64,000 bases of DNA from NCBI GenBank assembly GCA_964402895.1, contig CAYODR010000001.1:53641-117640 (forward strand), read 5' to 3'. This DNA is from an uncultured Candidatus Saccharibacteria bacterium (GTDB lineage Bacteria > Patescibacteriota > Minisyncoccia > Phycocordibacterales > UBA9973). Each line of letters begins with the position of its first letter. Positions within the stretch are counted from its first letter, which is position 1. Both the position numbers and the translations under genes were made by a program. The notes beneath the pieces were generated by a model. The model saw nothing but the letters and a program-made list of their open reading frames with translations. It did not search any database and was not told the origin of the DNA. Positions 30,910-30,960 of this stretch are shown here, one piece after another.

Positions 30910-30960
30910 TTGACTTTTTGAATAAAGTATTCTATTATTTAATCAAATAGGATAAGTAAA
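30910..30960 (+). promoter_or_regulatory. conserved promoter+leader cassette, copy A (TTGACT-17-TATTAT + TTAATCAAATAGGATAAGTAAA)
   Basis: -35 at 30910-30915, -10 at 30933-30938, conserved leader at 30939-30960. Confidence 0.65.

Follow-up and report, generated by a model that had tools for sequence, protein, structure and literature searches.

What does a promoter represent that recurs, together with its leader, in front of unrelated genes? The question is raised by a 64-kilobase (kb) stretch of chromosome from an uncultured bacterium (contig CAYODR010000001.1; the whole stretch is referred to as the window), in which a first-pass annotation had described four loci with a common -35 element, a spacer of 17 nucleotides (nt) and the -10 element TATTAT, three of them followed by a conserved leader, and had proposed a regulon of envelope or secreted proteins. 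The reading that we favour, with moderate confidence, is that the repeat represents a family of near-consensus sigma-70 promoters, specific to one lineage and spread by propagation, in a bacterium, most likely Nomurabacteria-like, from the CPR (Candidate Phyla Radiation), and that the conserved unit would run from an extension of the -35 element to about +18. Such copying of promoters appears to belong to a type of event already known and not to amount to a regulatory system of a new kind.

A family of near-identical promoters

The pattern TTGACTTTTT-N13-TATTAT, which consists of 16 fixed bases and a fixed 13-nt gap, is matched exactly at four sites in the window, 30910-30938 (+), 34478-34506 (+), 35310-35338 (+) and 6798-6770 (-), which belong to the units referred to below as A, B, W and Z, respectively. 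No further site is found in the window when up to two mismatches are allowed. Shuffled versions of the window contain a mean of 0.72 matches and none of 100 shuffles contains four or more, so that the four loci originally described are borne out. In a scan against the sigma-70 consensus, the arrangement TTGACT-17-TATTAT agrees at 10/12 positions at A, B, W and Z, with a spacer of 17 nt throughout, and the -10 element carries a TGn extension at two of the four sites (B and Z). All four sites lie in intergenic DNA, 50-80 nt ahead of an open reading frame (ORF), and their hexamers are close to TTGACA and TATAAT with a spacing within the 16-18 nt of sigma-70-type promoters.

The similarity extends well beyond the hexamers. 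An 11-nt block around the -35 element, ATTGACTTTTT, is common to every copy and is identical at 11/11 positions in five of them (A, B, Z, W and a further promoter, Y, described below); in all four window copies, TTGAC is preceded by an A and followed by TTTTT. Directly after the -10 element, the leader TTAATCRAATARGATAAG is found without mismatch at A and B and with one mismatch at Z, and it has no match elsewhere in the window with up to three mismatches allowed. The near-identical leader covers 17-22 nt in A, B and Z. Its presence at three of the four loci therefore stands, with the refinement that W is not leaderless: W and Z have AAATAAGA in common in exact register (TATTAT-N6-AAATARGA), and TATTAT-N6-(A/G)AATARGA is in register at all four sites, W included.

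Elsewhere in the window, as well as in related genomes, promoter-like sites take the form TTGAC(A/C/T)-N17-(TGn)TAtaaT, which makes the hexamers, their spacing and the TGn extension general properties of the clade. Specific to the family, on the sequences compared, are the A and the T5 tract that flank TTGAC, the exact TATTAT, the leader and the terminator end described below.

Terminators, a fifth promoter and a mosaic of modules

Each unit runs from its promoter through an A-rich leader, about 50-65 nt long as counted from the predicted start, and a single ORF to an intrinsic terminator, which is predicted in all four (z-scores from -2.7 to -5.2). The terminators of A, B and Z end in the same 14-mer, CGGCTTTTTTTATT, which occurs at exactly three sites in the 64 kb, namely these three terminator ends, and at three or more sites in 0/100 shuffles. 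Unit A is located between rpsI and grpE, B and then W between dnaK and dnaJ, and Z between proS and ybeY. As judged from gene order, the units resemble insertions of single genes into conserved neighbourhoods.

Extension beyond the window by means of its proteins yielded a further 5.5 kb or so of this genome, and the same strain is present in Logan assemblies of SRR16797981. The added sequence contains the fifth promoter, Y, with the form ATTGACTTTTT-N13-TATCAT, about 0.7 kb past the right end of the window (about window position 64687-64715 (+), observed in L036:439-411 (-)) and upstream of a gene for a hypothetical protein of 95 residues. Z and Y have in common a 24-nt block immediately upstream of the -35 element, identical at 19/24 positions; in Z this block, GTGTGTATATTACCGCGTGGTA, lies at 6799-6820 (-), and it is not common to A, B or W. 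The copies thus form a mosaic in which the upstream block is found in Z and Y, the -35 block in five copies, the exact -10 element in four, the leader core in four, the full leader in three and the terminator end in three. A mosaic of 5' and 3' modules is as expected for modules that have been copied and recombined, and it is from this mosaic and the common terminator that we infer copying. The common terminator, the fifth copy, the mosaic of modules and the nature of the genes that are driven (see below) are additions to the first-pass annotation.

Probable copying and constraint within the repeat

The genes downstream do not explain the similarity of their flanks. The protein of unit A has no homologue among 5.8 billion clusters, that of W has 111 matches, all of them distant (at most 36% identity), and the families of B and Z align with an hhalign probability of 0.9% and a weak BLASTP match over 47 residues (E = 0.006). 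The possibility that B and Z are paralogues and owe their common flanks to this was rejected at the sequence level on these two values. The leader is thus conserved across unrelated coding sequences, as had been proposed.

Conservation varies strongly from one part of the repeat to another. In the three pairwise comparisons among A, B and Z, the 13-nt spacer is mismatched at 17/39 positions (44%) and the first 17 positions of the leader at 4/51 (8%), a difference with a pooled Fisher p = 1e-4, the pairs not being independent, and p = 0.025 for A and B alone; the -35 block, -10 element and leader are mismatched at 0-8%. Neutral copies should look alike along their whole length if recent and should no longer have the leader if old, and the leader therefore appears to be under constraint rather than part of a fresh neutral duplication. 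The family is probably related by copying, with specific blocks, including +1 to about +18, kept by selection. Copying of DNA rather than a shared element had been named as a refutation of the original proposal, and this is half the case here: the sequences look copied, as a mosaic of 5' and 3' modules, but they also appear to be selectively maintained.

A mechanism consistent with these observations would have the housekeeping RNA polymerase holoenzyme bind ATTGACTTTTT and TATTAT across the 17-nt spacer, often with the help of TGn, and start transcription about 7 nt downstream of the -10 element, at the R of (A/G)AATARGA, as judged from the spacing. The stretch from +1 to about +18 would then be the initial transcribed region, copied along with the promoter and kept as part of its working unit, either through polymerase contacts and promoter escape or through the identity of the mRNA 5' end. 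In A, B and Z the matching terminator would close the unit. Such modules would give strong, probably constitutive and similar expression to the accessory genes that they serve, which encode an orphan (ORFan) membrane protein, a signal-peptide protein, a lectin-fold variable protein of the type diversified by diversity-generating retroelements (DGRs) and a second, putative variable protein of this type.

Distribution in other genomes

The cassette is absent upstream of the Z homologues (L012, L016, L017 and L033) and of the B homologue (L002), all of which have their own TTGACA-N17-TAtaaT promoters and different leaders, and neither TTGACTTTTT-N13-TAT nor the leader is present in about 150 kb of Z- and B-homologue loci of other CPR genomes. 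A scan of 185,579 species-representative genomes with TATTATTTAATCNAATANGATAA gave four scattered matches in unrelated metagenome-assembled genomes, none with a TTGAC -35 element. In the metagenomes of the Joint Genome Institute, TTGAC-N18-TATTATTTAATCNAATA gave 12 matches, none with TTTTT after TTGAC or RGATAAG after AATA, and two scans of viral contigs gave no match. The collections scanned are separate from the source genome, of which about 70 kb is covered here. The expectation of a cis-element conserved across genomes thus finds no counterpart at the homologous loci, in the species representatives or in the metagenomes.

The Z-family loci of L012, L016 and L017, of which L016 is syntenic with the window, have a longer leader with its own conserved hairpin and ACCGTGATTGCCGG. 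Their proteins have about 40 extra N-terminal residues, and their post-stop hairpins and terminator differ from those of Z. As the flanks of the homologues differ at both ends, Z would therefore have been refitted 5' and 3' in this lineage with modules common to A and B. The conserved hairpin of the homologues' 5' untranslated region (GAAACATGTCGTTTC and variants, followed by ACCGTGATTGCCGG; L012:9900-10000, L016:9900-10000 and L017:9920-10000) has no Rfam match. Hairpin and ACCGTGATTGCCGG may together be an undescribed cis-regulatory element of this family of DGR targets that was replaced in the Z of the window.

Alternative explanations

Three other readings of the repeat have to be weighed against propagated promoters. 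The repeat could be a neutral by-product, that is, a functionless stretch of some 60 bp that arose by recent segmental duplication or by gene conversion, or convergence on a generic strong-promoter consensus. The confinement of the cassette to this genome and the generic hexamers and TGn of the clade would fit such an origin, for which we nevertheless see only a slim chance, because neither a recent nor an old neutral copy accounts for the contrast between the spacer and the conserved blocks, and a generic consensus leaves the 11-nt -35 block, the leader and the common terminator unexplained. If the leader is functional, it may act as DNA. The block from -12 to +18 could be the site of one trans-acting regulator of A, B and Z and, weakly, of W, an operator reading that agrees with the fixed position of the block relative to the -10 element in three units with unrelated ORFs (four, counting the core in W) and with the far better conservation of the leader than of the spacer; a candidate regulator, a winged-helix protein with a PaaX_M domain, is moreover encoded in the same gene cluster (31900-32430). 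A common, still putative trans-acting factor for the units is possible. As an account of the repeat, the operator is nonetheless rather unlikely. Neither dyad nor direct-repeat symmetry is seen in the conserved block, and no inverted repeat is common to the four regions; the block is missing upstream of the Z and B homologues and from every other genome and metagenome scanned; the common terminator is left unexplained; and the gene set is functionally mixed. The proposed regulon of envelope or secreted proteins is not supported in that form, as one of the four genes encodes a DGR-type variable protein (Z) and another a putative one (B), both of which lack signal peptides.

The leader may equally act as RNA, its first 12-20 nt ((A/G)AAUARGAUAAG) being a single-stranded target for a protein, for a small RNA or for the ribosome and setting stability or translation. 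The conserved core does start about where the transcript should in all four units, the leaders are A-rich and unstructured, and no Shine-Dalgarno motif is visible by the start codons of these or neighbouring genes, so that the organism seems not to use it. Nor is a start codon, or a Shine-Dalgarno motif with a start codon, visible in the leader itself when it is read from the sequence. We regard an RNA element as unlikely, since conservation extends upstream of the transcript through the -10 and -35 elements and since no structure or Rfam family was found: the four leaders fold no better than shuffles (minimum free energy -1 to -4.2 kcal/mol, z-scores -1.3 to +0.7) and have no Rfam match at the gathering threshold, with chance-level matches only at E values up to 1. 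The RNA structure that had been suspected in the leader is accordingly not seen. Nor was a complementary partner found, no search aimed at one having been made. A more elaborate proposal combines the 5' module and the 3' module with its CGGCTTTTTTTATT terminator into an 'expression socket' for acquired or refitted accessory genes, including DGR-diversified lectin-fold proteins, in which the asymmetric leader would be the site of one co-regulating factor. Were this true, no regulon or expression system would have been defined in Nomurabacteria before it, and DGR targets would be linked to transcriptional control; we give it a small chance. Several other candidates, namely a resemblance to a PaaX box (TGATTC), a T7-like or mitochondrial single-subunit-polymerase promoter, a second overlapping promoter and a leader peptide, were dropped for want of a test or of fit.

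Several points weigh against propagated promoters as the full explanation. Terminal inverted repeats, target-site duplications and recombinase or transposase genes are all absent from the window, and no mechanism of copying is visible. Promoter Y has the -35 block without the leader of A, B and Z, which suggests that the leader is not obligatory for this type of promoter. The family size and gene set are judged from about 70 kb of the genome. The start site, the strength and indeed the activity of the promoters are deduced from sequence, as are copying as their origin and the role of the leader. Finally, the near-perfect conservation of 17-22 transcribed nucleotides goes beyond the known needs of promoter escape, and a sequence-specific DNA- or RNA-binding factor would fit it equally well. 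Propagated promoters, the operator and the 5'-terminal RNA element are not mutually exclusive.

Comparison with known systems

The closest parallel in the literature is with putative mobile promoters (Matus-Garcia, Nijveen and van Passel 2012, Nucleic Acids Res 40:10032, PMC3488235), which are similar upstream regions of 50-100 nt found within one genome ahead of non-homologous genes and with non-homologous upstream neighbours, in families that are small and mostly species-specific (PMC3488235). The A-B pair, with 60 nt at 82% identity, lies within the published thresholds (at least 50 nt and at least 80%). The coding sequences on both sides are non-homologous, the upstream genes rpsI, dnaK and proS being unrelated, and no insertion sequence, miniature inverted-repeat transposable element (MITE) or riboswitch offers itself as an explanation, as there is no Rfam match, no inverted-repeat ends and no transposase in the window. 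In contrast to mobile promoters, conservation here is block-wise (-35 extension, -10 element and initial transcribed region) rather than uniform, three units have a terminator end in common, and W and Y contain sub-modules only and would miss the published thresholds. Transposon or MITE ends and integron-like attC sites were considered for the modules and rejected, as the 5' and 3' modules have no inverted-repeat relation and there is no integrase.

Phage morons, a concept of Hendrix and Juhala, are autonomous promoter-gene-terminator modules inserted between conserved genes. Like them, the units have their own sigma-70 promoter, one accessory ORF and their own intrinsic terminator, and are wedged between normally adjacent genes (rpsI and grpE, dnaK and dnaJ). 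Unlike morons, they lie outside a prophage. The window is bacterial chromosome of 34% GC with the standard genetic code, two transfer RNAs (tRNAs) and housekeeping genes only (rpsI, grpE, dnaK, dnaJ, proS, mreBC, tgt, uvrABC, ftsAZ, dnaB, recR, obg, lepA, gatB and many aminoacyl-tRNA synthetases). A phage origin was rejected, since a megablast search of 28-38 kb against a phage collection was empty and the neighbouring genes encode ribosomal proteins, chaperones, aminoacyl-tRNA synthetases and DNA-repair proteins. Morons are also not known to have one promoter sequence in common. The strong early promoters of phages, such as the T5 N25/T7 A1 class, do form near-identical families with conserved initial transcribed sequences that affect promoter escape. 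They resemble the present family in their consensus-like hexamers, 17-nt spacer and conservation into the first 20 or so transcribed bases; they differ in that the promoters described here are on a cellular chromosome, have different sequences and are known from sequence alone.

Transcription signals are barely known in CPR bacteria (Patescibacteria), and the locus provides a clean, testable set of near-consensus promoters. It suggests that the functional conserved part of a promoter can reach some 20 nt past the start of the transcript, and that accessory genes are wired into housekeeping operons through the re-use of promoter and terminator modules. Should the leader bind a factor, it would provide a rare opportunity to study how genes are regulated in an uncultured lineage. 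The probably more useful side result is one of annotation, namely that hypothetical proteins described as Cys-rich with GC-rich ends would be remote targets of the DGR type.

Anatomy of the units

Unit A begins with a promoter and leader at 30909-30960 (+), made up of ATTGACTTTTT (30909-30919), the -10 element TATTAT (30933-30938) and the leader TTAATCAAATAGGATAAGTAAA (30939-30960), and transcription would start near 30945. The ORF (30988-31257 (+)) encodes a hydrophobic ORFan protein of 89 residues and is followed by an intrinsic terminator at 31268-31297 (+), the last 14 nt of which (31284-31297) are CGGCTTTTTTTATT.

The promoter and leader of unit B occupy 34477-34528 (+), with the -35 element at 34478-34483, the TGn-extended -10 element at 34501-34506 and the leader at 34507-34528. 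The -35 element and its T-tract adjoin the terminator hairpin of dnaK (34441-34479). The ORF (34563-35150 (+)) encodes 195 residues without a Pfam match or a signal peptide, and the intrinsic terminator at 35182-35213 (+) ends in CGGCTTTTTTTATT (35200-35213). Unit W has its promoter at 35309-35352 (+), comprising ATTGACTTTTT, TATTAT at 35333-35338 and, as the only common part of the leader, the core AAATAAGA at 35345-35352. Its ORF (35393-36070 (+)) encodes a protein of 225 residues with a signal-peptide-like N-terminus and distant homologues only, and its intrinsic terminator (36090-36121 (+)) is of a sequence type unlike those of A, B and Z.

Unit Z is read from the opposite strand. Its promoter and leader lie at 6745-6799 (-), with the -35 element at 6798-6793, the TGn-extended -10 element at 6775-6770 and the leader TTAATCAAATAAGATAAAGTAAAA at 6769-6746. 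The ORF (6206-6718 (-)) encodes a protein of 170 residues with a C-type-lectin fold, and the intrinsic terminator at 6152-6186 (-), ending in CGGCTTTTTTTATT (6165-6152), takes the place of the hairpins found downstream of the L012, L016 and L017 homologues. A related TTGACTTTTATC promoter is present at window position 60885, driving an ORF of 68 residues beside an HSP20 gene.

Proteins with features of diversity-generating retroelement targets

The descriptions first given to the products hold for A, which is hydrophobic, and for W with its signal-peptide-like N-terminus. For B and Z they need revision: neither has a signal peptide, and their 'GC-rich' 3' ends are in fact A-poor blocks, in which the fraction of A is 0.08-0.20 vs about 0.4 upstream. 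The Z family, which has 45 members, no Pfam entry and a lectin fold, comprises 44 homologues of 46-64% identity besides Z, one of them named Candidatus Nomurabacteria, and Z is an N-terminally short member. The order Z-ybeY-ftsA-ftsZ is the same in L016 (GCA_020632195.1, Candidatus Nomurabacteria) as in the window, and the window therefore most likely comes from a Nomurabacteria-like CPR bacterium. A DNA alignment of the variable region (6233-6334 (-)) from four genomes has 105 columns, of which 102 are ungapped and 46 variable; A occurs in 0/56 invariant columns vs 17/59 just upstream (Fisher p = 4e-6), and the approximately 27 nt directly after the region are near-identical among genomes with proteins that are only about 60% identical. 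Variation confined to template adenines and a C-type-lectin fold that carries the variable region are the marks of a DGR target, and Z carries this variable-protein signature.

Proteins of this kind include Mtd and TvpA, and a CPR clade of DGRs has been described (Roux et al. 2021, PMC8144416). In contrast to these, no template repeat or reverse transcriptase turned up in the window or in the 20-kb loci of five homologues (within 10 kb of each), the proteins are small and lack signal peptides, and Z lacks a downstream hairpin. They would thus be remote targets, a class missed by contig-based surveys (PMC8144416). The homologues in L012, L016 and L017 have a hairpin after the stop codon that is deleted in Z, which may mean that Z is no longer diversified. 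In another CPR genome, a 170-residue Z-family gene, a DsbB gene and a 161-residue ORF lie within the ribosomal protein operon between rplE and rpsH (L033:8735-11431); the variable region of this Z-family gene has decayed to AT-rich sequence, and it is a further case of the family inserted into a core operon.

B has a variable-region-like A-poor block at about 34941-35061 (+), followed by a 15-nt block, TCCTCCTACCGCGAA (35062-35076), that is near-identical in the L002 homologue. The comparison, which involves two sequences, gives conserved flanks, a divergent A-poor core and the conserved 15-nt end. The structure model of B is unusable (predicted local distance difference test score 44), so its fold is not modelled. 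Z thus looks like a DGR target, and B may be one, as judged from this two-sequence comparison. The only homologue of B (L002:9141-9755, also present in L003-L007) is split by an in-frame TAG exactly at the position of a Trp codon (TGG) of B; the TAG recurs in contigs from six samples and could reflect a fixed pseudogene, a split gene or recoding. Elsewhere in the window, at 18233-19018 (+), a protein of 261 residues combines a type IV pilin N-methylation motif with an Lcl_C (C-type-lectin-like) C-terminus, and A is scarce (0.18-0.27) in the last 150 or so nucleotides of its gene. A third target of the DGR type in the window may be encoded here.

Neighbouring features of the window

The chaperone genes around units A, B and W have several features of their own. 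The grpE gene follows the terminator of unit A directly, with the sequence TGTGTATAAT at 31306-31325 (+) and a -10 element at 31310-31315, 7 nt before the likely ATG at 31323, so that grpE appears from its sequence to be leaderless or nearly so. The PaaX_M winged-helix protein mentioned above (31900-32430 (-)) has 176 residues, its PaaX_M domain being Cas2-like, and is encoded between grpE and dnaK, a frequent site of hrcA, and might regulate the chaperone cluster. The region 5' of dnaK (32468-32505 (+)), between dnaK and this divergent gene, contains a perfect inverted repeat, TTTCACG-AC-CGTGAAA (32472-32487), inside an 8-nt inverted repeat, AGTATTTC...GAAATACT. These repeats lie just downstream of a TTTGCA-17-TGnTATAAT promoter and are not similar to CIRCE (controlling inverted repeat of chaperone expression); they are candidates for an operator of the heat-shock response or for a hairpin in the leader.

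Between unit W and dnaJ, a very basic ORF of 25 codons, MNKKRKIAAKKKRKAAGKNVSLRHR (36163-36240 (+)), has its own terminator at 36240-36270. Towards the right end of the window, at 60505-60640 (+), a 64-nt sequence is repeated twice in tandem with 98% identity and a period of 72 nt, the second copy of which enters the 5' end of the tRNA-Phe gene (60635-60708).
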